A stretch of 60,767 bases of DNA from a virus. Lineage: Duplodnaviria; Caudoviricetes. The stretch lies in the IMG/VR virus record IMGVR_UViG_3300033993_001964, positions 1 through 60,767 of that record, one strand, 5' to 3'. Numbering within the stretch: position 1 is the first letter of the stretch; each line of letters starts with the position of its first letter. This document shows, in pieces, positions 434 through 46,022 of this stretch. A program made the position numbers and the translations under genes. A model generated the notes under the pieces. The model searched no databases, had not been told where the DNA came from, and saw nothing but the letters and a program-made list of their open reading frames with translations.

Positions 434-1939
434 CTATGCGGCGGCGGTCTTCCTGCGGTCCAGTTCCTTCTGAACTGCCTGCTTGAACGGACTGTCCTTC
501 TTGTTCGACTCGTGCACCCACTGCAGGTAGCCTTCGGGAAGCGAGTCGAGTCGCTGGCCCTTGTACTTTCCGTACAACATTCGCCAGGCTCGGCCCTTCT
601 TTTCCTCAGGCTCCGAGAACAGGTCACGCGAGTTGTGATCGAACGTCACGCCAACCAGTAACGCCCTCCGCTTTTCGCGTAGTTCGGCGGCCTTCGCTTC
701 CATCTCGGCCAGGTCGAACTCGTCAGCTTCGCGGATGGCATCAACGGCGTCCGTGCCGTCCATCGACAGGCCTGAGCTTATGCGCTCTCGCCTTTTTGCG
801 CAAGCACGAGACTTGGCATCGAGCACGTCCAAGGCGCTCAGGAGTTGGTGCGACCGGCTGCTGTCCGTGATGTCGTAGATGTTGAAGTGCGGCTTGCCGG
901 ATGCGGCAATAGCGGCCAGCCGTTCCTCCTTGCTCATGTCCGGGTGGATGACTCCTGGCAGGGCACGCGTCCCACGACCCAGACGCTGCTCGTACCGGGA
1001 CAGGCTGCGGGTTGGGGCTGCCATGTAAATGTTTCGCAGCTCGGGATGATCCCATCCGTACCCCAGAATGCCCACGTTGACAATGATCTTGGTTTCGCCC
1101 TTGAGGAAGGCGTCCATGTTGTCCTTCCGTTCGACCAGGTTCTGCTTGCTATGAACAATGCTCGTCTTCTTGTCATAGCGCTCGAACACTTCCGTCAGGA
1201 GCTTGGCCTGCCGGACGTTACATGCGTAGACAACGCTGGGCTGGTGGTTGTGAGTCTGTAGTACCAGCGACGAAACCTCCTGGACGTAATGCTCGGCCGT
1301 GAGTACGGCGGCGAGCTGCTTCTTGTCCCACTCCCCGCACACTTCGTCCACCAGAGTCATGTCCAGGCTCTTGGACTCTGACATAAAGCACTTGGGCGGC
1401 ACGAGGTAGCCATCCTCGATGCCCTCCATTAGGGAGTACACGACCTGCGGTCTCGGCCAGTACCTCAGCGCCTTTCCCTTGCCCTTGTATGGCGTGGCAC
1501 TGAAGCCCACGATCGTCGCACCCTGAGCCTCGAAGTGCTTCAGCATTTCCTCGAGTCGGGGCGTGATACCGACATGGCATTCGTCCACCAAAACGAGGCT
1601 GACCCTGTCGTACCCGGAGGCCTTGTACCTGTTGCCTGATAGCAGGCTGTCTCGTGAGCCGACGATGATGCGTCGACGCAGGTCGGCCCGCATCAGTCCC
1701 TGCTCAATGTCGCAGCGTTCGTCCAGCCGCAGCTCCAGCCGGTCTCTGGCCTGCTTCATCAGGTCGATGAGCGGGGCAATGACCAGCGGGTGCTTGGCCA
1801 AGCGGCACAGCTCGGACATGACTTCAGTCTTGCCTGAGCCGACCGGCTGGCAGACCACGATCCTGCGGTCGCCAGCCTTAGCGGCACTGCAAACCTTGCT
1901 AACTGCGGACTTCTGGTAGTCGCGGAGCTTGACGGTCAT
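434..1939 (-). CDS. Superfamily 2 DExH helicase with C-terminal DUF3820-like domain
   Basis: LRDYQ Q-motif, QPVGSGKT Walker A, VDECH, SATP, GWDHP, QRLGRGTR; C-terminal MLYGKYKGQRLDSLPEGYLQWV; ATG 1939 overlaps upstream TGA (ATGA). Confidence 0.9.
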   Translation of the reverse strand: MTVKLRDYQKSAVSKVCSAAKAGDRRIVVCQPVGSGKTEVMSELCRLAKHPLVIAPLIDLMKQARDRLELRLDERCDIEQGLMRADLRRRIIVGSRDSLLSGNRYKASGYDRVSLVLVDECHVGITPRLEEMLKHFEAQGATIVGFSATPYKGKGKALRYWPRPQVVYSLMEGIEDGYLVPPKCFMSESKSLDMTLVDEVCGEWDKKQLAAVLTAEHYVQEVSSLVLQTHNHQPSVVYACNVRQAKLLTEVFERYDKKTSIVHSKQNLVERKDNMDAFLKGETKIIVNVGILGYGWDHPELRNIYMAAPTRSLSRYEQRLGRGTRALPGVIHPDMSKEERLAAIAASGKPHFNIYDITDSSRSHQLLSALDVLDAKSRACAKRRERISSGLSMDGTDAVDAIREADEFDLAEMEAKAAELREKRRALLVGVTFDHNSRDLFSEPEEKKGRAWRMLYGKYKGQRLDSLPEGYLQWVHESNKKDSPFKQAVQKELDRRKTAAA

Positions 1940-2205
1940 CTGTTTCGCCTGCCTTTCTTGCGCTTCTTCCTTTTCTTGTCCGGCTCTTGGGCCGGCGGCA
2001 GGTCGAAAGGCAGGTCCGCGTCCACGATCACGGGCTCCGGAAGCCGCACCGCCTCCAGGATCCGGCTCAGAATGTCGAGCTCGGCCAGCAGCTGGGGGAC
2101 GATGTGGATCAGGAGCTTGCGAAGCGTGGGTGCATCGAAGTTGTCCGTCTCTTGGACGGCCCCAATGACCGTCTGGCAAAGCTCAACGAGTTCACGATTG
2201 ACCAT
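1936..2205 (-). CDS. Hypothetical protein with very basic C-terminus
   Basis: MVNRELVEL... ending KKRKKRKKGRRNR; translationally coupled to the helicase. Confidence 0.6.
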   Translation of the reverse strand: MVNRELVELCQTVIGAVQETDNFDAPTLRKLLIHIVPQLLAELDILSRILEAVRLPEPVIVDADLPFDLPPAQEPDKKRKKRKKGRRNR

Positions 2206-2288
2206 GTGACGTCCTTGTGTGTGAAAAACCCCCTGTGCTGAAGGCTGGAGGGTGCAGCCCGGAGAAGCGGCCAGCACTCCGTGTCTCA

Positions 2289-2981
2289 CTAGGCAGGAAC
2301 GGGCTGCTTTTTCCGTGCGGCTGCAGACTTGTTGGCGTCGTCGGCCATGCTCGCCAGGTCTTCGTAGGCAGACTTGCGAACAGTGCCGGACTTCACGTGC
2401 TCAGCCACCCGATCGAGGATCGCCTTGCGCCGCTCAGGGTCGGCTGCGTCGTTCAGGCTCTTGATGGCCATGTCAACGATCCGCTTCTCGCCAGATGCAG
2501 CCTGCTCTTTGGCCAGCTCCTCTGCTGTCGTGCCATCGTCGTCGTCGTCGGCAGCCAGACCGACCAGCGCACAGTAGGCGGCACGACGTGCGTACGTGAT
2601 CGCCGCCGCCAGCCTCTGAGGATCGGCGGTCGAGGCCTTGATGGGCAGGTTGCTGTCGATGAACTCTCCGCTGCTGTGCAGAAGCTGCGTGCACAGGACG
2701 ATGTCGCCGTCCGTGTTGTTCGTCAGCGTCTGGACAACGACCAGCCCATGCTCGGCGAGCGCTCGGCTTGCCGCCTTGTGGCATTGGGCAAGGTCGGCGT
2801 AGTCCTTGACTGGCTTGCCGTCCGGTCCCTTCTTGGCGAAGTGGCTGGACCTGTTGCGAACCAGCGGCTCCATGTTGGGGATGGACTTCGCCAGAGCCTC
2901 AGCAAGCTTGGCCGTGCCCATCGGGCAGCGGTCCATGAGGGTGTAGATCTTCTTCTGCGGATACATCGTTCCTTCGATCAT
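2289..2981 (-). CDS. erf: ERF-family single-strand DNA annealing protein
   Basis: YADLA, LAEHGLVVVQ, TQLLHSSGEFI, DPQRLAAAITYARRAAYCALVGLAADDDDDG signature. Confidence 0.9.
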   Translation of the reverse strand: MIEGTMYPQKKIYTLMDRCPMGTAKLAEALAKSIPNMEPLVRNRSSHFAKKGPDGKPVKDYADLAQCHKAASRALAEHGLVVVQTLTNNTDGDIVLCTQLLHSSGEFIDSNLPIKASTADPQRLAAAITYARRAAYCALVGLAADDDDDGTTAEELAKEQAASGEKRIVDMAIKSLNDAADPERRKAILDRVAEHVKSGTVRKSAYEDLASMADDANKSAAARKKQPVPA

Positions 2982-3883
2982 GACATTCTCCTGATGTGTG
3001 CCGGGACTGGCAGTTCAACGACCTCGCCGTGCTGGTCCGGCATCCAGTAGTCGAGGTCCATGCGGATCCGTATGTCCGCGAGAGAAGCCATTAGGCGTCG
3101 TCGTCCATCGGAGACGAGGTCCAGTGGCAAAGTCACAACGTGGCACTGATGCGGCCACACTGTGCTGACAACAACAAAGTTCAGCGGTCGGGGATCCATC
3201 CCCAGCGCTTCCATGCCCCACTGGTAATGCGCATCCTGCGCGTGGTAGCCGTACGTAACGACGGACTTCCAGAAGGAGTCGAGGATGTCTGCTTCTTTGG
3301 TGGTCTTGAGATCCACCCACGCAGACTGAGAGATGAGGTCGGGCCGGCACCTGAGCAGCTGTCCATCTGGGCCTTCCCAGCGGACGCTGACCTCGTGGGC
3401 CACCGCTTCCTCGATGAGCTTCCGGGCAGCCCGGTGCTCCATGACGGCGTCGATCTCACGCCGGAGCTGCTTGATCTCCTTGCCGGAAACCAGCTCCATG
3501 CCGGGTGCGTTCTCGAGGGCCCATTGCTGGGCCTTTTTCCCGACCTGCCCCGTTTCCGTCAGAGTGTCCTCTGGCGGGGCGACCAGCTCCTCGAAGAGCC
3601 GTTCGCCTACCTCCAGCCACCTGTGCAGCCGGGTTCCATGCGCTAGGGCGGCCGACTCTTCCGACTGTATGGACCGGGCAACATGGCGAAGGTAGAAATA
3701 CCTAGCACCCCGCGAGGCGTGATCCCAGAGCTGGGACTTCGACCATCCTGCGGAGGCGTGATAGGCCGAGTTGGCCTCACCCTCCGCAGCGGATGGGAGT
3801 TCCGGGAATGGGCGATACTGGGCTCGAACCAGTGACCCCCAGCTTGTCGAGCTGGGGGTAGACAACGCCTGATCGCGGGGCAT
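2978..3883 (-). CDS. Exonuclease VIII-like PD-(D/E)XK nuclease (DUF3799-like); start uncertain (ATG 3883 or 3907)
   Basis: NSAYHA..SKSQL, ALAHGTRLH, LRCRPD, DLKTT, YGYHAQDAHY; sits directly upstream of ERF as in RecET-like pairs. Confidence 0.85.
   Translation of the reverse strand: MPRDQALSTPSSTSWGSLVRAQYRPFPELPSAAEGEANSAYHASAGWSKSQLWDHASRGARYFYLRHVARSIQSEESAALAHGTRLHRWLEVGERLFEELVAPPEDTLTETGQVGKKAQQWALENAPGMELVSGKEIKQLRREIDAVMEHRAARKLIEEAVAHEVSVRWEGPDGQLLRCRPDLISQSAWVDLKTTKEADILDSFWKSVVTYGYHAQDAHYQWGMEALGMDPRPLNFVVVSTVWPHQCHVVTLPLDLVSDGRRRLMASLADIRIRMDLDYWMPDQHGEVVELPVPAHIRRMS
3809..3855 (-). mobile_element. attP core: 3' half of tRNA-Val(GAC)
   Basis: Minus strand CCAGC-TCGACAA-GCTGG (anticodon arm, GAC), GGGTC, ACTGG-TTCGAGC-CCAGT (T arm), ATCGCCCA (acceptor 3' strand); D arm and 5' acceptor strand absent; about 50 bp upstream of a tyrosine integrase. 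Confidence 0.85.
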
Positions 3884-3886
3884 ACT
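3859..3886 (+). promoter_or_regulatory. Possible sigma70-type promoter for the integrase
   Basis: TAGACA-N16-CATACT followed by AAGGGGG RBS-like sequence and ATG 3906. Confidence 0.35.
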
Positions 3887-3905
3887 GCCTATTAAGGGGG
3901 TTGTC

Positions 3906-4715
3906 ATGTCACCGAAGTCTCTGGTGTTGGAATACCTGGACGGCCGCGAGTGCCATCCTGAGTACCGCCGGGCGATGATTGCTCTGGCAAGTCGGCTGTC
4001 CGACCTGACCGCAGCAGCAGTCAACGCGCATCTCCGTATGCGTGCAGAATCCTGTTCGGCAACCACCGTCGCCAATGAGCGGCGGATGGTGCTTACCTTG
4101 TGGCGATGGGCTTGGGAGGAAGGCCGGATCGACTCGGCGCCGCGAGGCGTCATGAAGATCAAGAACCACCAGAAGCCCGTTCGTGCCTGGACTATCGCCG
4201 AGTGCCGCGAACTCGTCAAGGGGTCGGAAAAGTTTTTTGGCCAGCGACTTCGCAACGGAGCAGACGTTGGCAAGTTTTTGCAGTGCTGGGTGCTGCTTGC
4301 CTACGAGACGGGAGCCCGCTACGGCGACGTGTTTGCATGGAAGAAGGGGAACTTTGCGGGGTCTACGGTGAGTTGGGTTACGTCCAAGACGGGAGTGCCG
4401 TGCACGCGAGTGGTCTCGCCCAAAGCAATGGAACTGGTCGCGGACATGCTGAACGCCAGCCCGGACGATCGAGTGCTGGGCTGGGCGTGCTGCCGTCGCC
4501 AGTCGTTCCGTCTTATGCGCAAGCTAATAGCCTCCTGCCTGCCTGGCGGCAGCGGTAGGTGGCTTCGGAGGTCAGCCGCCACCCATCTGGAACTTAATCA
4601 GCCCGGAAAGGCGCAATGGTTCCTAGCACACAAGACAGCAGGATTGGCGGCCAGGCACTACCTGGACCAGTCCCAGCTGGTATCGGAAACCCTCAAGCCT
4701 CCGAGCATCTACTGA
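3906..4715 (+). CDS. int: Tyrosine recombinase / phage integrase
   Basis: LAYETGARYGDV (box I R), SKTG (K), RWLRRSAAT (variant HxxR), LAHKT (H), RHYLD (catalytic Y); adjacent attP. Confidence 0.85.
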   Translation: MSPKSLVLEYLDGRECHPEYRRAMIALASRLSDLTAAAVNAHLRMRAESCSATTVANERRMVLTLWRWAWEEGRIDSAPRGVMKIKNHQKPVRAWTIAECRELVKGSEKFFGQRLRNGADVGKFLQCWVLLAYETGARYGDVFAWKKGNFAGSTVSWVTSKTGVPCTRVVSPKAMELVADMLNASPDDRVLGWACCRRQSFRLMRKLIASCLPGGSGRWLRRSAATHLELNQPGKAQWFLAHKTAGLAARHYLDQSQLVSETLKPPSIY

Positions 4716-7700
4716 ACAACGAATGGGTTGCCGCCAAATACTCCGGGCCCAGCGCCTGCCTTCTTTCCATCACGGCGGGCCTTCTGGATCTCGGAGCGCT
4801 TTTGGCGCGCCAACTCAAATGCGTCCAGAGCGTTCTTCGGCACCATCGCGCGTTGACTCTCCGGGATGTACGGAATCGAAACGTCCTTCGTGTACGGAGC
4901 CGCAAGCTCCTGGAGCCGCTTGATCTGGTCTTCGGCGATGCGGTCCTTTGACATCGCACGGAAGCGACCGAGACCCATTTGGTTGAACGTCGTGTCGAAT
5001 GCACGAGAGCCGAACGAGCGATCCTCGTCGTTGCCGATCAAGCTGGCGGCAAGCCTGGCCGGCTGCGAAGCAAAAGGGATCAGATCAATAGCGCGGTCAA
5101 GGCCAGCAGGGATTCTCCCGGTGCCCGCATCAGGACCAGCAACAGCTCTGGCAATCTTGCTGTACGGTCCGTAGCCTTTGGCAAGGTGGCCGATCGGTTC
5201 CTTAGTAAAGGCGTCTTGACCAGTGAGCAACTCGCCGCCGACGCGAATCAGCGGCGACATGCCCTGCAATACGTTGCCGAGCGTGTTGCTAGCGGACGAC
5301 GGGTCAAACATCTGCAGCTGGTCGTAGCCAGGCAAGTCCACGTCAGTGAAGTAGCGCGTGTAGTTGGGGTCGTCGCTACCCAAGAAAGGCATGTTGTCCG
5401 GGATCGGAACTGCAAACTGCGACCGAAGCTGCTCAGGGATGTACGGCTCGTCGTCAGTTGGGTTCTGCAGGTTCTCGTACACCCGCAGGCCCTGTCCGTA
5501 CCGCCCGCCCGGCCGCTCAAGCAGCTGCCGACCAGCCTCAGCTGTGATGCGTGACGTGTACGCGTAGAACGGCATGAAGGAATCGCGGAACTGCTTTTCG
5601 ACAGTGGTCAGAGAGTCGTAGTCGACGTGCGCGCGTTTCATGCGGCGAGCTGCTTCCTCTGGCGATATGCCCTGAAGCAGCAGGGAGTTGTAGCCTGTTA
5701 GTCGGTTAATCGTGTCCGACAGGTTTCCAGCCCGGCCGCCGGCAGCGGCGATCGGATTCTTGTCCAGGTTCATGAAGTTGGCCCAGTTGTCCGCCTTGAA
5801 AAGCGGCGAAGCAGCGTCGGACCAACTCATTGGATTGACGCCTGGCATCAGCTCCGTCATCGGCGTGCCTGCCGACTCCAGACCTACGTCGCGTAGGTAT
5901 CCTCCGCCCAGCAATCCTTCTGCTGCGAGGTCAGAGTAATACCGCGCGGCCCTGTCTGAGGCTGGGTAGCTGGAGTATCGCGGCATCTGCCCTAAGAACG
6001 CAACGAACTCAGGATCAAACGCAGACTTCTTGGCCAACTCTCTTGCTGTGACGTACGGCTTGCCAGAGAACAGATCAACGATGTGCCGCATTATCGGCAT
6101 GGCGCGCATGTCCAGCGCACCCTCAAGCCAGTTGGAGAACATGCCGCTGTAAAGGTCGCGCACTATGCGTCGCGGCATAGCAAGAACGCCGGCCTTCCAT
6201 CCCCGATTGAACCATCGCAAGGGCTTGAGCAATGTCTCAACGGACTCGGGCTTAGAAAACGCATCCTGAACCTTGAGCATCCGGTTGATGTCATCTTCCG
6301 GAACAGAGTATTTGGCTAGCTCAATCTTGTCTGCCTGTTCGCCGGTGACCTCAGCCAGCCGGCGGCGCATCTGCTGGCGTGCGCCCTCTTCTCCGAGCTC
6401 GCCCTGCACGGTGCGAGCGCCGAATCTCTTGAGGGCCTCGCTGAGCGGAATGCTCTTGCCGCCTTCTACAAAAGGTGCGGGCGTGGGCTTGGCAATGGCG
6501 GCGATCGAGTCGTAGATCGACTTCTGCACGGCGCCTGCGCCAGCACGCCCGGACACGTAGTCCATGACCGTCTTGGTGGGATGCTGAGCGTACAGCTGGG
6601 TCGGACCTGCCGCCGTCTCTGGCAGCAGATGCAGGAGTCTGGCTAGCTGAAGCCCTTGCTTCTTGCCTTCGTCGGTGACTTCGCCGTACAGCTTCTCGGC
6701 GATGTGAATGGCAGCAGCGTCGTCGGTAGTTGCCGTACGCTTCGGGCCAGCCACGACAGGGTCAAGGCTAAGGTCAAAAGCAATCGTGTCTCGACCGCCC
6801 GGAACCTTAAGTGCGTCAGTGCGCGCCATCTGGTCTGGCGTCATGGTGCCAAGCACGCGCCCCAGAGAAGACGACGATCCCTGCTCACGACCAAGCACCC
6901 CATCCAGGCGGCGCGGCAGGTAGCCAGCCACATTCGGGTCATCCAGCGTGCCGCCATTCAGGCCGAGCTCGCGGAACTCTGGCGGCAACTCTGCGGCCTT
7001 CTCGTCCCACCAGTTCAGGTAGTTGCGAATCGCAGGGCTGCTGTCCGCTTTAGCGGCGTCGGCAGCTGCGTTCGGGTTCTCAAGAGGCTTGTCCATTAGG
7101 CGGCCAAGCGTGCGGTTGCCCTCTTCTGAGAAGACCTCTGGCGCACCCTGATACAGCTTGGAGGCCTGGTAGACAGCCTCCCTCCTGGCTTCTTTCTGGG
7201 CGGCCTTTCGTGCGTCGTCTGCCCCAGCAAACGCCGCCTGCTGCGCTGCGTCAGTGCCGCCGCCAACAGCGTTGTTGGTAAGAGACGCAAGCACTCGGCC
7301 AGGTCCGGACCAGCGAGCGATGTCGTCCACCTTGTCCATCGCGTCGGTGTACATATCGCCGACGAACGGGATGTTGAACGTGGCTCGAGCATCGTGCATG
7401 AACGACGGCGCCAGGCCAACATCCCCACCGAGACGCTGGGTGCGGAGTACGTCGTACTGGCCCTCGATGCCCTGCTTGCGCAGCCAGTCCCGGACCGACC
7501 TCTGCGCCTCCTCCGGATTGGGCGCGTAGTCGATCAGGTTGCCAAGCGTCCCGTACTTGCGTGCCGCACGGCGCCCGACGAGCGGTCGGCCCACCACGTC
7601 CGTCTCGCTCAGCGTCTCACGGCCCAGCTTCTGACCCAGCTTGGTGGCGTAGGCCGTAGCCCGCTCCGTGAGCTCGGGCGCCAGGTCTTCGGCGGAGTTG

Positions 7701-10685: not shown

Positions 10686-13600
10686 CTACCAGGGAACTGG
10701 GTTCATGGGGGTCATTAGCGTGTATCGGCGCTGGCGCGCCCGGCGAACTTGGTCGCCGACGGTCTCACTACTCTGATTTGTGTCCTCTTCGGGGCTGCCG
10801 GAAAGCCCGAAATCGCCGGCCATAGCCTCAGAGTCCTCGTCGCCGCCGAGAAGTCCGTATGCACCGCCGGCGCTGGCAATGGCTGCCAGGCCGATGTTGC
10901 GGCGGGTCTTGGCCCTGCGCACCTTGTCGGCCTTGTCCTTGAGGGCGACGTCCTTGTCCACCTGGCGCTGCATGTTCTCCAGGTCTTCCTTTGACCTGGC
11001 TGTCGGGCCCTCTACAACGCCCGCAGTACGCCCGGACGGCTTCGCTTCGGCGGCGTCGACCGACTCCTGGTGTGGGTTCGTGTCCTCTACGAAGGCCTCG
11101 CCCTCGTACGTCTGCCGCCTGTTGACGCCGGCGCCGTTGTAGAACTCGTCGTCCGAGACCGCCTCTTCGGCCTGGCGCTTCGGCTTTTGGCCGATGATCG
11201 GAACCTCCTCAAACGACTGATTCACTCCTCGCAGGTCTCTGGTCTGCACGGAGGATGCGCGCCTGACCTGGATCGGCGTACCGGTTTCGTCAAAGTCGAC
11301 CGCCGCAAGGCCGGCTTCTGGTGATCCGAGACGAAGACGCCCTTCTCCGAGCTGTTCGGCGTCGATTCGCCTGCCGTTCAGCTGTTTGCTAACGGTGACT
11401 TCCTTCATGCTGCCGTCAGGCTGCGATGCCATGTACGTCTGCTTGATGGTGATGATGGAGGACGGGCGGCCGTCCTTGTCCGTGCCGTTCGTGACGGAGA
11501 TTTGCGGAGGGCCCTTTGGTGTAGCGCCAGATGGCTTCGCACTAGAAGAGAGTCGGCGCTGCTCAGACTCGGCAATGCGAGCCACTGCCGTCTGTCGCTG
11601 CTTAGGCCGCATGGCCACAAGGCGCTGCGACAACAACTCAGCGTCCGACATATCTTGCGCAGAAGCTGAGTCGGGCGAGATGCCGCGCAGGCGCAGGATC
11701 GCTGCAACGCGATCGTCCTCAGGAAGCTGGTCGACAGTGTCGGCAAACTCCGCCACGCTTCGAGCAAACTTGGCAGACTCCGTCTCCTCTGAGCCATCAA
11801 GCCTTCCTGACAGCCAGTTCTTCAGCTGGTCCGCCTGATCAGACGGAACTTCTATAGAGCCGGCAAAGCCCTTAGGTAGCTCAAGGTCAGTCGCTTCCGA
11901 TAGCGATACGGGCTTAAACGCAGGAGTGCGCGGCTGTCGACCCTGCGACGGCTGCGGTTCAGCGGCCGGAAGAATGTCAGACTCCTGGAATCCGAGAGGG
12001 CCTTGCTCAACGCTGGGCGGCGTGTAGTCGGCGTCCGGCTGCTGCATGCGCCTGGCCAGATGGCCTACTCGCGCCTCCAGTTCGCTATCAAAGCGCGACA
12101 TGTCCGTGCCAGAGACGGATGCATGGTCGGCTGCGTTCTGCCTGGCGGTGTTGATGTTTGCGGAGATGCGATCCAGCTCGCCGCCCTTAGCGGAGTAGAT
12201 CTCTTCGCGAGTGGGCAGTGTGCTGATCAGGTACTCGTTGGCGTCGACGTCCTTAGGCTCTGCCGGCGCGGCTGGTGCGTTGGGATCCAGGCCTGTAATG
12301 ACACGGCCGGCTTGAGACATGGCGTCCGTGACGCGCTGGATAGCCTGGCGAAGTGGGCTCATCGGCTTCGGCGGCCCGGCAACTTCCTGCACGGGCTTCG
12401 GCAGGATTCGAGCAGGACCGGACGCGACGATGCCCATGTCGCGAACTGCGTCGCTGGCGGCCTGGCGCAGAGCCTCCGGAGTGGAGCCATCTAATGCGCT
12501 GTCTTCAACCAGACCGCCTTCTTGATCAACAGCGCCACGCTGAGCCTGAGCAAACTCTAGGCGGCGAATGAGGGCGTCGTAGATGATGTCTTCAGCGGAG
12601 CCCAGACGACCGTCGGCAGCAAGCTTCTTCAGGTTTTCCAGTCCGTCCGACAGGTCGTTACCGCTGACCCGCTCAGAGAACATCTCTCGCAGGGCGGCAA
12701 CCCGATCTGCCGGAGACTCTGCGGTCATGAAGCGACGAAGAAGGCGGTTCTGGTTTACTCCAGACGGCTCGAGCAAGTTAATGCCACCGGCCTTGCGGTT
12801 GTATCGCTCACGCATGCCGTCGCCGAACGAGCGCTGCACCATCGCCTGCATCTCGGACTCGAGCTGCGCCCTCTCGGCCGGGTCGGTGGCGGCGTCTACT
12901 CGCGCCTGCAGCTCGCGCACGTCGTCAACTGCGGACTCCGAGACGCCACCTTCGTGAGTGTCAAAGTCACGGAACACAATCGGCATGACCGGCGAGCGCG
13001 CCGACCGTGCGCCTTCTTGCTTGGCCCAGTTGGACGCAAGCACTTCCCTAACTACCGCATTCCTAGCGTCGGCGGACATAGCAGGCCGCACGCCAAGAGC
13101 TGAGGTGGTTGCTTGACTGCCAGCAAACTGCCTGTCGGCAGCACGCTCGGCCTCTGCAGCCTCCGCCTCGCCTCGTGGGTTCTGGGTGCGCGGCCCGGCC
13201 TCAGTCGACATGCCGTTGACGTCGATGACAGTAGTGGCTTCGTTCTGCGCCTGCATTGCGTCGCTCGCAAAGGCGGCGTCGTCTTTAGCCTGATCAAGCC
13301 CACCCCTAACCTCGCGCCGCTGGGGCGCCAGCTGCTCGGACTGCGCCTTGAGCGTCTCGTACTGCTTCTGCGCAGGCTCGAACATCACGTCAAGCTCGCC
13401 ACGAGAAGCGTTGAGGATCTGAGCCTGCATCTCTTTCGGCAGCCGGGTGAACGGCCGGAACGTCATGATGCGAGCTTGCGGCGCCATCGTGCGCTGCTGA
13501 CCAGTCCAGGGATTGATGTTAGTGGACGGATCGGCGGCCTTGTCTACGTACTGCCTCATCATGTCGATGGAGTACGCGAAGTCGTCGGCAAGCTGCTTCT

Positions 13601-41829: not shown

Positions 41830-42186
41830 CTAGAACCCCACGAGCTCTTCTTCGTGGTTCTCGGAGCGGTCACGCTTGCGCCACCGCAGGCTCTTGCCAA
41901 CCTCGTTGGCCAGCAGGCGCAGCGACGTGCCAGTCGTGCCGTCCTTCTTCGTGTACTGCTCGAGCTGCAGGTTGCCGCGAATCACCACCCGGTCTCCCGG
42001 CTGAAGCGACTCGGCGACGATGTCGGCCTGCTCATCGAACACCACGACGTCGAGCCAGGTGGTCTGCTCTCCGGTTGGGGTCTTTGAGCTAGAGGCGACC
42101 GAGAAGTTCGCCATCTGCTTGCCGGTCTTGGTCATCCGCACCTCAGGCATGCGGCCTACGTTTCCTGTGACTGTGGCCTCAATCAT
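41830..42186 (-). CDS. ssb: Single-stranded DNA-binding protein
   Basis: VTGNVGRMPEVR, ANFSVA, TTWLDVVVF, GDRVVIRGNL, YTKKDG; acidic tail ending in F; AAGGAGG RBS. Confidence 0.92.
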   Translation of the reverse strand: MIEATVTGNVGRMPEVRMTKTGKQMANFSVASSSKTPTGEQTTWLDVVVFDEQADIVAESLQPGDRVVIRGNLQLEQYTKKDGTTGTSLRLLANEVGKSLRWRKRDRSENHEEELVGF

Positions 42187-42219
42187 GAGAGCCTCCTTGC
42201 GCTAGGGTTATCGAACTAG

Positions 42220-42233
42220 CGCACGGTTGTACA
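42220..42233. promoter_or_regulatory. Degenerate TGTAC-N4-GTACA-like operator upstream of ssb
   Basis: CGCACGGTTGTACA (2 mismatches), about 35 bp upstream of the ssb start. Confidence 0.3.
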
Positions 42234-42289
42234 CGCCTCAGGAGAAGCGCGCAAGGCCCCATTCGTCGTCGAACAGGAACCAGAACGGG

Positions 42290-42703
42290 CTAACCACCAA
42301 GTCCGACGGGGTTGCCACCTGGAGACTGCGGCTTACCGTAGCCCTTCCACATGGAGTTGTGGCGCATCTGGTTGCCGATGAACTTGTCCTGGCTGGCATT
42401 GGCCTGACGCACGTCTTTCCAGGAGTCATTGAGGTAGCGGTCGCCAGCGGCCTCGCCAAGAGGGTCATGGCCGTCACCAGCCACAGGCGGACGAGGCAGC
42501 AAGCTCGAGCTACCGGACGTCATGGCGCCAAGCACCGACTCACGGCCGGCTGGAGTGTGCAGCTGGCTGGCTGGCACCTGGCTGGGGTCCATGTCCAGGA
42601 CCATCGGGTCACCGTCGCCGGCGTGCATGTCCAGCGTCATAGGGCGATTAGCGTTCGTCAGGTCACGGATGCGGGACTCGGTGGTGGATTTGTTCGTTGG
42701 CAT
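42290..42703 (-). CDS. Hypothetical protein, first gene of the leftward arm
   Basis: AAGGAG RBS; preceded by a GACCCATAAA variant of the late motif (42721-42730). Confidence 0.6.
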   Translation of the reverse strand: MPTNKSTTESRIRDLTNANRPMTLDMHAGDGDPMVLDMDPSQVPASQLHTPAGRESVLGAMTSGSSSLLPRPPVAGDGHDPLGEAAGDRYLNDSWKDVRQANASQDKFIGNQMRHNSMWKGYGKPQSPGGNPVGLGG

Positions 42704-42944
42704 GGGGACTCCTTGCTTGTTTTATGGGTCGGGGCCTTTCGAAAACGGGAAAAAATCCAGGGGCTGCATTTACATGAGGGGCGGGCGCGAAAGGGGGGCT
42801 CGGGGCCTTTGATCTGTCGCCGTAAGTCCTTTGCCAGCGCGGGCTTGCGTTGTCGGACAAGGAACACGCGGTCGTGAAGGTGGCCCGAGCCAATTAAATC
42901 TGGGTCGCTCTTCCCCGCTTGCCCGCAGTTCGCGAATTGCGAAC

Positions 42945-42978
42945 GCCCCTGTTTTCAGGCACCGGCGAGTAACAGTGT
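42945..42978 (+). repeat. Early cassette motif copy 1 (degenerate)
   Basis: GCCCCTGTTTTCAGGCACCGGCGAGTAACAGTGT. Confidence 0.7.
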
Positions 42979-43029
42979 CAGCAGCAACCGCAGCACTTCG
43001 CTGAGGACTGACTGGCACGGAGGATTCGC

Positions 43030-43185
43030 ATGCTGTGCTGCAGCTGCTGTGGGAACGTCTTCGCCAACGAGGTCGCTGACCCGGCGTTTGTCTGCGACCT
43101 GTGCGATGCCGAGCGTCGTGAGGCGTACCTGGAAGAGATGAAGGACGCCGAAGACGACCCGTTTCCGGGAGTCGTCGATTGGTGA
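43030..43185 (+). CDS. Small Zn-finger-like acidic protein (51 aa, not in ORF track)
   Basis: GGAGG RBS; MLCCSCCGNVFANEVADPAFVCDLCDAERREAYLEEMKDAEDDPFPGVVDW. Confidence 0.6.
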   Translation: MLCCSCCGNVFANEVADPAFVCDLCDAERREAYLEEMKDAEDDPFPGVVDW

Positions 43186-43275
43186 GGGCTCGCGAGGCCG
43201 CCCAGTGACTTCGGTTGCTGGGCGAGCTCCTGCGCCTTTGCAGGCTGTTCGGGTCTTTCTCTTGGAGGATTGGAA

Positions 43276-43386
43276 ATGCTTTGGCTTCTACGCGCGGCGA
43301 TGCGTGCTGTGCTGGTCCTTGTGCTCTTGGACTGCGCCGCCAACGTGGTACTGGCGCTGCTCCGTGCTTGGGTCGCTTCACACTGA
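43276..43386 (+). CDS. Small hydrophobic peptide (36 aa, not in ORF track)
   Basis: GGAGG RBS; MLWLLRAAMRAVLVLVLLDCAANVVLALLRAWVASH. Confidence 0.5.
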   Translation: MLWLLRAAMRAVLVLVLLDCAANVVLALLRAWVASH

Positions 43387-43398
43387 AGTGACAGCAAA

Positions 43399-43432
43399 CC
43401 CCTTGTTTTCAGGGGTCGGCGAGTATCAGTAG
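43399..43432 (+). repeat. Early cassette motif copy 2
   Basis: CCCCTTGTTTTCAGGGGTCGGCGAGTATCAGTAG. Confidence 0.9.
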
Positions 43433-43528
43433 CAGGTCAGCGGCACCTCCCACCAACCGCATTTCCTGCTCAGTCTTTTAGTCGGCAGTCAGCCGGCGGA
43501 CTGGGCGGGAGTCTTGTGGAGGTGTCCC

Positions 43529-43951
43529 ATGTCCTTTCGTAAGGGTGACCTGTTTGTTGTCTCGTGTGCTTTGGTTGCGGTCGGGTTCATGGTCTCGATG
43601 TTCGTTGCGTCTGGTAGTGCCAACACGTGGCTCTACGGCGTCTCGGAGTCGGTGACCAGCTACCTGGCTGCACCACAGCGAATAGCTCGGCTCGAGGCTG
43701 AGGTCAAGGAGTGCGACGGCTTGCTGGCTGTGGCACGACGCGATCTCAAGTCGGCACACGAGCGGCTGGACTCTGATGCCACGCAGCACCGCCACGTGCT
43801 GGATGCTGCGAAGGTACAGATTGCTGTGGCTGAGGGGGAACGCGACCGGCTCTTTGCCGAGCTGGCTTCGCTGCGTTCCCGCCATGCCACGCTGTGCCAG
43901 CAGCTGCTCGAGCTGGGCAATGACGTGCCTAGTGTTCTGGCTGGAGAGTAG
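43529..43951 (+). CDS. Membrane-anchored coiled-coil protein
   Basis: GGAGGTG RBS; N-terminal hydrophobic helix followed by heptad-like region. Confidence 0.75.
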   Translation: MSFRKGDLFVVSCALVAVGFMVSMFVASGSANTWLYGVSESVTSYLAAPQRIARLEAEVKECDGLLAVARRDLKSAHERLDSDATQHRHVLDAAKVQIAVAEGERDRLFAELASLRSRHATLCQQLLELGNDVPSVLAGE

Positions 43952-44002
43952 CCCGAAACCCGCTTCGGCGGGTCTCACCGTGATGCGGTGACTGATGAGG
44001 GC
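43951..44002 (+). ncRNA. Type II hammerhead ribozyme
   Basis: GCCC-GAAA-CCCGC-UUCG-GCGGG-UC^-UCACCG-UGAUG-CGGUGA-CUGAUGA-GGGC: all conserved core residues and three perfect stems; predicted cleavage after C43974. Confidence 0.92.
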
Positions 44003-44035
44003 AGTTCCCCTGTTTCTTGGAGGGAGGAATAAAAG

Positions 44036-44317
44036 ATGACGCTCGTGACCCTGAGTGCAGCTCAAGGCTGTGCCATCCTGGCTGTGATAGCCAGCGTGTA
44101 CGTGACCTGGAAGATGGCCGCGTCTGCCCGAGACCGGGTCGACTGGCTCAAGGATGACATGGACGACCGCGAGTCTGCCATGTCCGTGATGGTAGACGGC
44201 ATGAGTCAGAAGGTTGACGCCCTGTCTGCTCAGGTCGAGCGGCTGGCGGCTAAGTTGCAGGACCGCACGCTCGATGCGGCCCGTGTCCGGATGAAGAAGA
44301 TCAAAGGAGGTGCCTGA
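44036..44317 (+). CDS. Membrane-anchored coiled-coil protein
   Basis: GGAGG RBS; N-terminal hydrophobic helix, coiled-coil C-terminus. Confidence 0.75.
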   Translation: MTLVTLSAAQGCAILAVIASVYVTWKMAASARDRVDWLKDDMDDRESAMSVMVDGMSQKVDALSAQVERLAAKLQDRTLDAARVRMKKIKGGA

Positions 44318-44658
44318 TGCCATACGCTGATGCCAAGTACCCCAAACCCAAGCAAGAAAGAGGTGAGTCAATGCACGACTGCCCACTGTGTGGCGCACCC
44401 AAGCCCAACGAGGACTGGGACTGGTCCAAGTCTGTGTCGGTGATGGTGGATAGCGGCGAGCGGATCATCAGGCTCGCAGACAGCGACGCGCACTCGCTGT
44501 ACGCAATGCTTAGTAAGTCGTGGAGAGAGGACGGCAAGCCAAAGGGCGACTGGCGGGACGGAGTGCTCGACCTGCTGTTCGCTCAGTTTGGGATAGACCA
44601 AAGGATGATCGACGCCCAGCTGGACGACGAGCCGGAGGACCAAGCGAAAACCCCCTGA
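44317..44658 (+). CDS. Hypothetical protein with CPLCG motif (start may be 44371)
   Basis: TGATG coupling; its stop codon lies inside cassette motif copy 3. Confidence 0.65.
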   Translation: MPYADAKYPKPKQERGESMHDCPLCGAPKPNEDWDWSKSVSVMVDSGERIIRLADSDAHSLYAMLSKSWREDGKPKGDWRDGVLDLLFAQFGIDQRMIDAQLDDEPEDQAKTP

Positions 44659-44684
44659 TTTCAGGGGCCGGCGAGTAGTAGTAG
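44651..44684 (+). repeat. Early cassette motif copy 3
   Basis: CCCCCTGATTTCAGGGGCCGGCGAGTAGTAGTAG. Confidence 0.9.
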
Positions 44685-44694
44685 ACGGTTCGAT

Positions 44695-44729
44695 AGCCCT
44701 GCCGGGCACCCTACCCGGCGGGGCTTTTT
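44695..44729 (+). terminator. Stem-loop plus U tract after motif copy 3
   Basis: AGCCCTGCCGGG...CCCGGCGGGGCT TTTT. Confidence 0.65.
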
Positions 44730-44753
44730 CATTTCTCTAACCCGGAGTTTCAC

Positions 44754-45140
44754 ATGGCTATGCCAGCGTGGCCCCCTTACCTGGTGATGCAGTATCGGTG
44801 CGGAAAGGTCAAGAAGAATCGTGTCTACGCTCTGGTCCGCACCAAGAGCGAGGCAAAGGAGCTCGTGATCTCTGCGTCAGTCAAGCGACGCAGGGAGAAC
44901 GAGTTCTACGTAGTGATCGACGGACCCAAGTCCGCACGAGACCCAGACCACACGTACTTCGTCGGTGCTCTGTGCCATGCCGGCCGTGAGATTGTTCTCA
45001 TGGAAGGCGAGGAGCATCCGATCCTCATGCCTGTCGAGGTCGCTCGGATGTACGAGGGCGATGAGTCGGTCAAGTTCCTGACCCAGAATCGCCAGGCCCT
45101 TTCCGCTCCCGCACAGCAGGAGGAGGGGCAGCAGGAATGA
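44754..45140 (+). CDS. Hypothetical protein
   Basis: GGAG RBS; coupled to the next gene. Confidence 0.7.
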   Translation: MAMPAWPPYLVMQYRCGKVKKNRVYALVRTKSEAKELVISASVKRRRENEFYVVIDGPKSARDPDHTYFVGALCHAGREIVLMEGEEHPILMPVEVARMYEGDESVKFLTQNRQALSAPAQQEEGQQE

Positions 45141-45391
45141 GACTGCACACGGTCACCGCACGAGGGGTGGCAGTGTCATTCCTCATGGACGAGTTGAGAT
45201 CTTACGACGACGCGCTCGATGCGCTAGTCTCCAGCAAGGACGGAATGGGCGAGTTCACTGACGCCCACATGGAATCAGTGACCAGTCTCTACACCAAGAT
45301 CAGGACCGCAATCCTGATCGCAACAGAGGGGGAAACCCTCAGGAGGGAAACGCGTGAGCGACTCACTTACGACTGTGAGCCTGACGAATGA
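45137..45391 (+). CDS. Hypothetical protein
   Basis: ATGA overlap with the upstream gene. Confidence 0.6.
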   Translation: MRLHTVTARGVAVSFLMDELRSYDDALDALVSSKDGMGEFTDAHMESVTSLYTKIRTAILIATEGETLRRETRERLTYDCEPDE

Positions 45392-45578
45392 CCAGCTCGA
45401 GGTCGTGCTGGACGCACTGGATCAGTACCGGCAGGAGAACCACGACCTGCTGATGCTGTCCGACTTCGACGACGAGACGTTTGGCGTAGTCGCTGGGCGT
45501 GTCGAGATCGCAGTCAATTTGATGCGTGATCTGGGCGTGGACATCGGCACCGACTCTGAAGAGGAGGTGGTCGAATGA
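45354..45578 (+). CDS. Small acidic hypothetical protein
   Basis: AGGAGG RBS, GTG start; very Asp/Glu-rich. Confidence 0.65.
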   Translation: MSDSLTTVSLTNDQLEVVLDALDQYRQENHDLLMLSDFDDETFGVVAGRVEIAVNLMRDLGVDIGTDSEEEVVE

Positions 45579-45946
45579 ACGTAGCCACAGGGAATCGTGT
45601 GACCGCACAGGATCTTGTGCGTGTCGAGAAGCTGGAGGCTCAGGTCGGCGTGCTTGAGCTCGCGGCGCAAGAGGTTGTTGCCAGCATTCACAACCTGCGT
45701 ACTGACCAGCTTGCGAGTGCGAAGCGCTGCATAGCCACAGGCACGAAGGTGTTTGCCAAAGAGGAAGACACCCCAGTGCAAGAGCTCGAGCGAGAGATCG
45801 CCTTGCTCAGGGCCCGCCTGCAGTGCGAGCTGTGGGAGGGATGGTGGACTGAAGTTGAGCAGGAGTTGGCCAAGCTCAACGCTGCGTTCGCTGAGTTCCG
45901 GGCAACGAAGAGCCTTGCGTCAGTGCTCGATTGCTGCAGCGATTGA
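45575..45946 (+). CDS. Coiled-coil hypothetical protein
   Basis: GGAGGTG RBS, ATGA overlap; stop abuts motif copy 4. Confidence 0.7.
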   Translation: MNVATGNRVTAQDLVRVEKLEAQVGVLELAAQEVVASIHNLRTDQLASAKRCIATGTKVFAKEEDTPVQELEREIALLRARLQCELWEGWWTEVEQELAKLNAAFAEFRATKSLASVLDCCSD

Positions 45947-45979
45947 CCCTTGATTTCAGGGGTCGGCGAGTTAATTCGG
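45946..45979 (+). repeat. Early cassette motif copy 4
   Basis: ACCCTTGATTTCAGGGGTCGGCGAGTTAATTCGG. Confidence 0.85.
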
Positions 45980-46022
45980 GAGGCCGGTGACCACGTTGGC
46001 GCCGGCCTCCCTTTTCTTTTTT
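45978..46022 (+). terminator. Stem-loop plus U tract after motif copy 4
   Basis: GGGAGGCCGG...CCGGCCTCCC TTTTCTTTTTT. Confidence 0.7.

Follow-up and report, generated by a model that had tools for sequence, protein, structure and literature searches.

A predicted type II hammerhead ribozyme between two small genes of an uncultured phage

Organization of the locus

The stretch of DNA analysed here (referred to as the window) is the whole of the virus record IMGVR_UViG_3300033993_001964, 60,767 bp in length and rated 99% complete. A hammerhead ribozyme motif of type II topology is located on its + strand between the stop codon of one small gene (gene A) and the start codon of the next (gene B), and it probably cleaves the transcript of these genes. 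The anatomy of the element, the comparison with shuffled sequences and the covariation among its relatives all support the original prediction, which placed an intact type II hammerhead between two genes on their coding strand. The parts of the element are as follows.

43950, + strand: A on the 5′ side of stem II, the middle base of the TAG stop codon; candidate for the "3′ A of loop 2"
43951-44002, + strand: complete type II hammerhead, with all core bases, three stems and a GUC site
43951-43954, + strand: 5′ strand of stem II, GCCC, paired with GGGC at 43999-44002
43955-43957, + strand: core G12 A13 A14 (GAAA in 120 of 120 complete distinct relatives)
43958-43973, + strand: stem III hairpin ACCCGC-UUCG-GCGGGU, made of the A15.1-U16.1 pair and 5 further bp, with a UUCG loop
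43972-43974, + strand: cleavage site GUC, with C17 at 43974; scission predicted between 43974 and 43975 from the hammerhead consensus
43975-43991, + strand: stem I hairpin UCACCG-UGAUG-CGGUGA, 6 bp, with the 5-nt loop UGAUG at 43981-43985
43992-43998, + strand: core C3 U4 G5 A6 U7 G8 A9 (CUGAUGA), from the sequence
43999-44002, + strand: 3′ strand of stem II, GGGC, from pairing and from covariation in relatives
44003, + strand: A, the first base after stem II, conserved (A in 84 of 91 short-loop copies, see below)

The order of the parts, together with a full-length alignment to the Rfam model RF02276, gives the type II permutation, in which stem II is open and a loop closes each of stems I and III. 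The hammerhead core is numbered C3 U4 G5 A6 N7 G8 A9, G12 A13 A14, the A15.1-U16.1 pair and a base other than G at position 17. In the window these positions are occupied by CUGAUGA, GAA, the A43958-U43973 pair and C43974. Three helices surround the core, and the pairs next to it (C43954-G43999, U43975-A43991 and A43958-U43973) are all standard. The calculated energies of the two hairpins are -10.4 kcal/mol for stem III and -8.5 kcal/mol for stem I. All of the stems and core motifs of the original prediction, as well as the GUC triplet, were recovered at the same positions.

The TAG stop codon of the upstream open reading frame (ORF) is at 43949-43951, and its G doubles as the first base of the ribozyme. 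The next ATG is at 44036, with 33 nt between the end of the element and this start codon. The placement first described, from the last base of the upstream stop codon to about 33 nt before an ATG, is therefore borne out. Both codons are on the same strand, in a phage gene cluster, and the arrangement is intercistronic. The surrounding features are listed here and described further below.

43392-43528, + strand: leader of gene A, with one copy of a repeated element (core 43407-43425) and the ribosome-binding site of gene A
43529-43951, + strand: gene A, 140 amino acids from the ATG at 43529 (ORF and translation)
44003-44035, + strand: 5′ untranslated region of gene B, which is also the 3′ tail of the ribozyme; Shine-Dalgarno sequence GGAGGGAGG at 44019-44027, 8 nt before the ATG
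44036-44317, + strand: gene B, 93 amino acids (ORF), with a hydrophobic N-terminus and a helical part
44317-44658, + strand: gene C, 113 amino acids; its start overlaps the gene B stop by one base
44695-44735, + strand: hairpin resembling an intrinsic terminator, 12 bp with 10 G-C pairs, followed by a T run (from a consensus scan only)

Occurrence beyond chance and covariation in relatives

A strict type II descriptor was assembled from a 4-bp stem II, GAA, a stem III hairpin closed by an A..U pair, a non-G site, a stem I hairpin and CUGAUGA. Applied to both strands of the window, it has a single match; 300 shuffles that preserve dinucleotides have none. CTGATGA as a bare heptamer shows no enrichment (7 copies in the window; mean of the shuffles, 8.0). 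The minimum-energy structure of the 52-mer is the hammerhead fold, at -25.1 kcal/mol (z = -2.9).

Relatives of the element were collected with a protein-guided search, exact-pattern scans of viral and metagenome contigs, and a covariance model of our own (R1). The model was built from ten copies of the same length, found by the protein-guided search and three of the viral-contig pattern scans. The window copy scores 80.3 bits with R1 and the next best site in the window 13.5 bits (filters off), and no second hammerhead copy was found in the window by this search.

The closest relative, found by the protein-guided search, is on one contig (L002/L003; loci are given as L numbers). There, stems II and III, the core and the flanks, with the end of gene A, do not differ from those in the window. 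Stem I is CUGCCG/CGGCAG in the relative and UCACCG/CGGUGA in the window, with three pairs altered on both sides. In the ten copies of the same length, 100% of the 160 cells are paired, with compensatory changes at 8 of the 16 pairs.

With R1, 53 matches were found in 28 sources (318,847 bases searched). An alignment of 45 distinct rows has 97.2% of its 681 cells paired and compensatory changes at 14 of the 16 pairs. Its covariation score is 0.706, compared to 0.152 in shuffles, and none of 500 shuffles reaches 0.706. In a control with the partners slid by 1-3 columns, 30-47% of the cells are paired. The cells of stem III in this alignment are 100% paired (5 of 6 pairs compensatory) and those of stem I 99.6% (6 of 6), while the compensatory variants of stem II in relatives include GGUC/GACC, GAGC/GCUC and AGUC/GACU.

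The metagenome pattern scan gave 99 stretches, the best 80 loci of which were used, and these added 106 R1 matches. From the matches listed, the viral and metagenome contigs hold 121 distinct relatives in total. The GAAA segment is present in all of the 120 complete ones, and the 121st is cut by a contig end. Among the 121, substitutions in the 3′ core occur only at position 7 (U in 110, C in 9 and A in 2, counts that include 3 copies with one extra base before stem II). The base at the cleavage site is C in 112 and A in 3 of the 115 relatives that were parsed, and never G. Stem I, loop I and both flanks were specified by no search pattern.

Two pattern scans gave little or nothing of use. The six viral-contig loci found with the pattern GTC-N17-CTGATGAGGGCAG (L031-L036) were rejected, as no hammerhead is recognisable in them; five lie in apparent coding sequence, and L033 is without GAAA or stem III. 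The scan of genome contigs gave three stretches, from a Polaromonas metagenome-assembled genome (MAG), a Sulfotelmatobacter MAG and Actinorhabdospora. Only the Sulfotelmatobacter stretch is hammerhead-like by eye, and the scan provided no clue to the host.

A short-loop subclass and its proposed tertiary contact

A search with the Rfam hammerhead models, proposed with the original prediction, had a divided outcome. The best match is indeed Hammerhead_II (RF02276), at 43951-44010 and over the full length of the model (1-66), with E = 1.8e-4 for the 251 nt searched. Its score of 30.0 bits, however, does not reach the cut-off of 37, and a default Rfam scan of the window, where this gathering score applies, lists no match. 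The low score is explained by the 5-nt loop I (about 10 nt in the model), a stem II of 4 bp, longer than that of the model, and the divergence of the 3′ tail from the consensus.

The window copy belongs to a short-loop subclass of type II hammerheads, without a pseudoknot between loop I and the tail. This pseudoknot is found in the majority of type II hammerheads, with many lacking it, and it was needed for fast cleavage in the examples tested (PMC3088659). Among the relatives, long-loop copies (those of L021, L030, L022 and L023, and one of L020) have 4-7 bp of loop-tail pairing that starts at tail position 1. In the copies with a 17-nt stem I, an identical tail is found with many different loops, which indicates that the tail belongs to the downstream gene rather than to the ribozyme. 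A loop I-tail pseudoknot was rejected for the window copy on these grounds and for its poor pairing.

The short-loop copies share a different set of bases. The first base of loop I is U in 91 of 91 distinct copies (U43981 in the window), the closing pair of the loop is G-C in 84 of the 91, and the base after stem II is A, also in 84. Before stem II there is an A in every one of the 93 distinct short-loop contexts, and in 41 of these the base is not part of the stop codon. This position was included in no search pattern, nor in R1.

In natural type I and type III hammerheads, the U that begins loop 1 and the A that ends loop 2 on its 3′ side are conserved and form a reverse Hoogsteen U-A contact, and a conserved purine:A opposition closes loop 2 (PMC2632901). 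The bases of this motif are in place in the window as U43981, A43950 and A44003, with loop 2 open. In a type II hammerhead loop 2 is open, and its ends are the two bases that flank stem II. By analogy with the natural hammerheads and from the conservation of A43950, U43981 and A44003, these three bases therefore probably supply the docking of stem I on stem II; U43981 would contact A43950, and A44003 would close the open loop. The functional element would then be 43950-44003, using two of the three bases of the stop codon.

Two other contacts were considered. An extension of stem II into the coding region and the tail is possible by eye in the window and in L002, but the -2/+2 pair is present in only 34 of the 93 contexts, and the extension was rejected. 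Pairing between the tail and the Shine-Dalgarno sequence, as a switch operated by cleavage, is seen in some folds but is unsupported; the energies are no better than those of shuffles, and the pairing is not conserved.

In the 22 viral loci, only 13 of the 44 R1 matches reach the Rfam cut-off, and just one of these 13 has a 17-nt stem I. Rfam gave one extra match beyond those of R1 in the same loci. Default Rfam annotation would thus miss most of the short-loop subclass. Possibly, though on balance doubtfully, the subclass is distinct as well as under-annotated: the mRNA itself would supply the "open loop 2", with the A in or right behind the upstream stop codon and the first base of the following 5′ untranslated region docking on the U of loop I, ribozyme folding would compete with termination of translation for the same nucleotides, and the copies would double as crossover joints for single-gene cassettes. 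Short-loop examples free of the pseudoknot may already be present in Figure S5 and Dataset S1 of PMC3088659.

Probable catalytic competence

By every sequence-level criterion examined the element is a hammerhead, and by its topology it is of type II; the two features of the Rfam family that it lacks, a score above the cut-off and the pseudoknot, are not universal ones. Positions 43950-44003 are, with reasonable confidence, a catalytically competent type II hammerhead in a polycistronic phage transcript (A-ribozyme-B-C), which would cut the mRNA into hairpin-ended pieces with separate stability and translation. The strict core combined with covarying stems argues that selection maintains catalysis.

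Several observations weigh against this interpretation. The match to RF02276 (30.0 bits) is below the curated gathering score of 37. The best pairing between loop I and the tail in the window is 3 bp, including 2 G-U pairs, short of the at least 4 bp expected of the pseudoknot, and conservation is the only argument for the substitute contact. Within 131 nt of context, part of stem II is lost in the minimum-energy fold to pairing with the coding region, and the fold energies of longer contexts are no better than those of shuffles. The search patterns fixed the core together with either stem II or stem III, so that the conservation of these parts is partly built in, and alignments made with R1 are biased towards the R1 structure. 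Finally, with a single copy in the window, the element divides a transcript and does not flank a gene.

Some of these points would also fit an element without ribozyme activity, be it a look-alike that arose by chance or a decayed copy whose GC-rich hairpins serve only as RNA stabilisers or as an RNase site. Besides the sub-threshold score and the absence of the pseudoknot, RF02276 at E <= 10 matches 11 of 14 control genomes as well, none of them above the cut-off. On the other hand, the descriptor finds nothing in the 300 shuffles, the core is intact, and the differences from the closest relative are compensatory. In addition, the R1 score of the element is far from that of the next site (80.3 and 13.5 bits), and bases outside the helices are invariant. 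A look-alike or dead copy is unlikely, and we consider this explanation very improbable.

Flanking genes and the proposed transcript

The genes of the window include those for a portal protein, the large terminase, an HNH endonuclease, an ATPase and a virion protein. The record is an uncultured phage. A blastn search of 42000-46000 against the phage collection gave no match, and the terminase matches only Arthrobacter phages, at about 23% identity, which gives no clue to the host. The ribozyme sits in a run of small genes on the + strand, and no PHROGs family was found for the 9 small neighbouring proteins tested.

The start of gene A is most likely the ATG at 43529, with GGAGGTG in front of it. 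The translation has a hydrophobic N-terminal segment followed by a long helical or coiled-coil part. Homologues are found in L002 (57% identity) and, more distantly, in L006, and the homologue of gene B in L003 is 98% identical. Searches of Pfam with genes A and B gave sub-threshold matches of coiled-coil type only, and no relatedness of the two genes to each other was detectable. The description of both as membrane coiled-coil genes is thus plausible from the translations (hydrophobic N-termini and heptad-like helices), with family support limited to these sub-threshold matches.

Genes A, B and C would be co-transcribed with the ribozyme. The leader at 43392-43528 may be the start or a control point of this transcript. 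Because the start of gene C and the stop of gene B have one base in common, gene C probably shares the downstream cleavage product with gene B. The strong terminator-like hairpin at 44695-44735, which immediately follows a copy of the repeated element and precedes the next gene, is likely the 3′ end of the transcript, to judge from its sequence. A scan for intrinsic terminators called none at the ribozyme.

Once transcribed, the RNA would fold and self-cleave at the bond joining C43974 to U43975. The two pieces would then be joined by no more than the 4 bp of stem II and should therefore separate. The stop codon would stay on the upstream mRNA, whose 3′ end, a 2′,3′-cyclic phosphate on the stem III hairpin, would be 23 nt beyond it. 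The downstream mRNA would begin with a 5′-OH on the first paired base of the stem I hairpin and would have a 61-nt leader with its own Shine-Dalgarno sequence. These product ends, a UUCG hairpin upstream and a hairpin with a 5′-OH downstream, are those of the original prediction, and they follow from the sequence. Hammerhead cleavage yields a 2′,3′-cyclic phosphate and a 5′-OH. Hairpins at the 3′ end impede 3′ exonucleases, and a 5′-terminal hairpin together with the absence of a 5′ phosphate impedes decay that depends on the 5′ end. A tail of 23 nt past the stop codon should permit normal termination. As a result, the operon would be resolved into an A message and a B-C message, both protected by hairpins and with separate lifetimes and translation, without a site for a host RNase.

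The idea that the two genes are uncoupled in this way, without host RNases, matches a published hypothesis. Processing of long phage transcripts was already proposed for prophage hammerheads in 2011 (PMC3088659; also PMC6765202). Type II hammerheads that flank prophage genes cleave both in vitro and in vivo (PMC3088659), and cleavage in cells is reported for three type II hammerheads of Desulfovibrio vulgaris located near phage-like genes (PMC8782182).

Placement next to stop codons and start sites

In 44 distinct viral-contig contexts, covering all classes of the hammerhead, the upstream ORF ends between -2 and +17 nt from the element, and 43 of them have an upstream frame that stays open over 54 codons or more. 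Downstream of the hammerhead, mostly at 17-38 nt, there is a start codon that has a purine-rich ribosome-binding site. (The heuristic for start codons mis-called one start in L002, which was corrected.) The gap between the stop codon and the ribozyme in the 93 short-loop contexts is as follows.

-1 nt: 28 of 93 contexts
0 nt: 21 of 93 contexts
1-7 nt: 35 of 93 contexts
10-18 nt: 6 of 93 contexts
not callable: 3 of 93 contexts

The stop codon is therefore -1 to +7 nt from the element in 84 of the 90 callable contexts. In 28 contexts, as in the window, stem II begins with the G of TAG. The stop codons in these short-loop contexts (loci L002-L119), counted next to the ribozymes only, are TAG in 42, TAA in 41 and TGA in 7.

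This placement bears on an alternative in which the ribozyme is gated by translation. A ribosome terminating on gene A would cover stem II, the GAA, part of stem III and A43950, so that cleavage would be limited to the time ahead of the first ribosome or to poor translation of gene A. Cleavage would then report on or respond to upstream translation and would not be constitutive. The small gaps (-1 or 0 in 49 and 1-7 in 35 of the 90 callable contexts, with the range of -2 to +17 in the 44 contexts of all classes), the supply of the -1 A by a base of the stop codon itself in 49 of the 90, and the distribution of the stop codons are all in keeping with such gating. Regulated cleavage of phage hammerheads has also been raised as a possibility (PMC3088659). 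However, close packing with an A in front of stem II is also what genome compaction by itself would produce. In the 41 contexts that have the -1 A beyond the stop codon it is just as invariant, and therefore the stop codon is not required for it. Moreover, hammerheads usually cleave during transcription, ahead of ribosomes. Gating by translation is thus unlikely, and constitutive division of the transcript is preferred.

In the five virus records that were searched whole, the copies are on one strand, with 2 in 0.3 kb, 8 in 3.1 kb, 3 in 1.8 kb and singles in two partial records. Dense arrays are found in two loci. L021 has 8 hammerheads within 3.1 kb (3616-6700, + strand), and L030 has 6 within 3.7 kb (1661-5374, + strand), or 7 with one extra Rfam match. 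Nearly every small gene is bracketed in both arrays, and their copies are mostly of the long-loop pseudoknot class.

Indications of recombination between copies

Differences among the relatives indicate that the copies also exchange sequences. In L005, two copies (11314-11365 and 11572-11623, 258 nt apart) flank a gene of 59 amino acids, and the same gene is flanked by a pair of copies in L007, L008 and L113. L010 is without this gene and has one chimeric copy (788-840, - strand), which combines the 5′ half and upstream flank of one copy (a) with stem I and the downstream flank of the other (b). As read from the two sequences, the difference between L005 and L010 is the gain or loss of a cassette by a crossover inside the ribozyme. 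In addition, all four combinations of two stem III alleles with two stem I alleles occur, and L002 has an extra gene of 58 amino acids right after a ribozyme that has the alternative allele of stem I. These sequences are good indications of recombination inside the element.

The element might then be mainly a homology block of 50-60 nt for the insertion, deletion and swapping of genes at their boundaries, like the PeSL elements of T4-type phages, with self-cleavage secondary or tolerated. Besides the chimera, the allele combinations and the extra gene of L002, near-identical copies are found between unrelated gene pairs in syntenic relatives, where the ORFs compared are about 50-78% identical, and the PeSL elements themselves provide a precedent (PMC2839356, PMC4122927). 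Recombination is nevertheless expected at any conserved repeat, with no need for a selected function, and invariance of 11 core bases alongside covarying stems, as seen in the 121 copies, is not what a pure homology block would maintain. A joint for cassettes also complements a role in cleavage more than it competes with it. As the main function of the element, in place of cleavage of the transcript, it is improbable. No relevant report of hammerheads as recombination joints was found in a limited literature search, and the idea may be in print; the PeSL motif comes closest to it.

A second repeated element and other observations

Another intergenic element is repeated in the window, on the strand of the small-gene cluster. 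It consists of a short hairpin followed by a conserved box, with the 19-nt core TTTCAGGGGTCGGCGAGTA. With up to 3 mismatches, the core has 6 copies on the + strand, compared to 0.03 expected, starting at 42953, 43407, 44659, 45954, 47011 and 48931. Downstream of the copies at 44659, 45954 and 47011 there is a GC-rich hairpin and a T run. By eye the element is unlike a sigma-70 promoter, and it may be a promoter specific to the phage, a signal for antitermination or attenuation, or a promoter-terminator cassette like those of the PeSL elements.

The leader of gene A, about 137 nt (43392-43528), is highly conserved in L002 (2855-3003) and in L006, where it is on the reverse strand after the 59-amino-acid gene and where the homologue of gene A is only about 28% identical. 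A second, more diverged copy of the leader follows the extra gene of L002, giving two copies there (2855-3003 and 3700-3846). The leader has no Rfam match, and is a candidate for a cis-regulatory RNA or a promoter region. In L016, a contig that also has a short-loop hammerhead, positions 3780-3859 (+ strand) match the Rfam CyVA-1 RNA (RF02965) at 52.4 bits, compared to its gathering score of 41.4 bits.

Significance and comparison with known systems

The function of hammerheads in bacteria and phages is still described as open (PMC6765202). The window offers a clean case, with a single ribozyme that would split a short transcript in an apparently complete genome of an uncultured phage, and in its relatives the stop codon, the ribozyme and the ribosome-binding site lie within about 90 nt. 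Since default Rfam annotation misses most of the short-loop copies, intercistronic ribozymes in phage metagenomes are probably undercounted. The invariant A-U-A bases define a testable tertiary contact for type II hammerheads free of the pseudoknot, and a role of the ribozyme repeats in the shuffling of phage genes is suggested by the copies that are chimeric or re-assorted. The proposed use of stop-codon bases in a tertiary motif and the proposed ribozyme-delimited cassettes may be new. Current views are not overturned by this element, which is real but expected.

The tertiary motif described by Dufour et al. in 2008 (PMC2632901) is matched in the short-loop copies by the invariant U at the start of loop I, the invariant A on the 5′ side of stem II and the A found mostly on its 3′ side. 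In contrast to that motif, loop 2 is open here, its ends are the flanking mRNA, the 3′ A often belongs to a stop codon, and the contact is a proposed one.

In Desulfovibrio vulgaris, type II hammerheads are likewise near hypothetical or phage-like genes, and two of them lie close together (PMC8782182). The organism and the sequences differ from those here. Fragments with a 2′,3′-cyclic phosphate and a 5′-OH were captured there by cyPhyRNA-seq (PMC8782182).

The HHphage hammerhead of the haloviruses HF1 and HF2 is, like the window copy, closely upstream of a start codon in a polycistronic transcript (an early one for HHphage), and a transcript 5′ end has been mapped within three nucleotides of its cleavage site (PMC3088659). 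It differs in being a structural variant that needs high Mg2+, 13 nt before the start codon, in an archaeal virus (PMC3088659).

The PeSL elements of T4-type phages are short conserved motifs that border small variable genes and are said to mediate modular shuffling (PMC2839356, PMC4122927). Here, the hammerhead copies and the second repeated element stand at gene borders of the same kind. PeSLs are promoter and terminator signals, however, not ribozymes, and shuffling in the present case is suggested by one chimera and the combinations of alleles.

The nearest known system is the RF02276 family of type II hammerheads (PMC3088659). The window copy has a 5-nt loop I (about 10 nt in the model), a 4-bp stem II, no pseudoknot and a score of 30 bits against 37. 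The core and the permuted topology are the same, and the Rfam type II consensus also has an unpaired A on each side of stem II. Moreover, several type II copies flank single genes of non-constant identity in the published set (PMC3088659). The intergenic position on the coding strand in a phage gene cluster is shared as well, and the genomic arrangement of the window is that described for prophages in PMC3088659.

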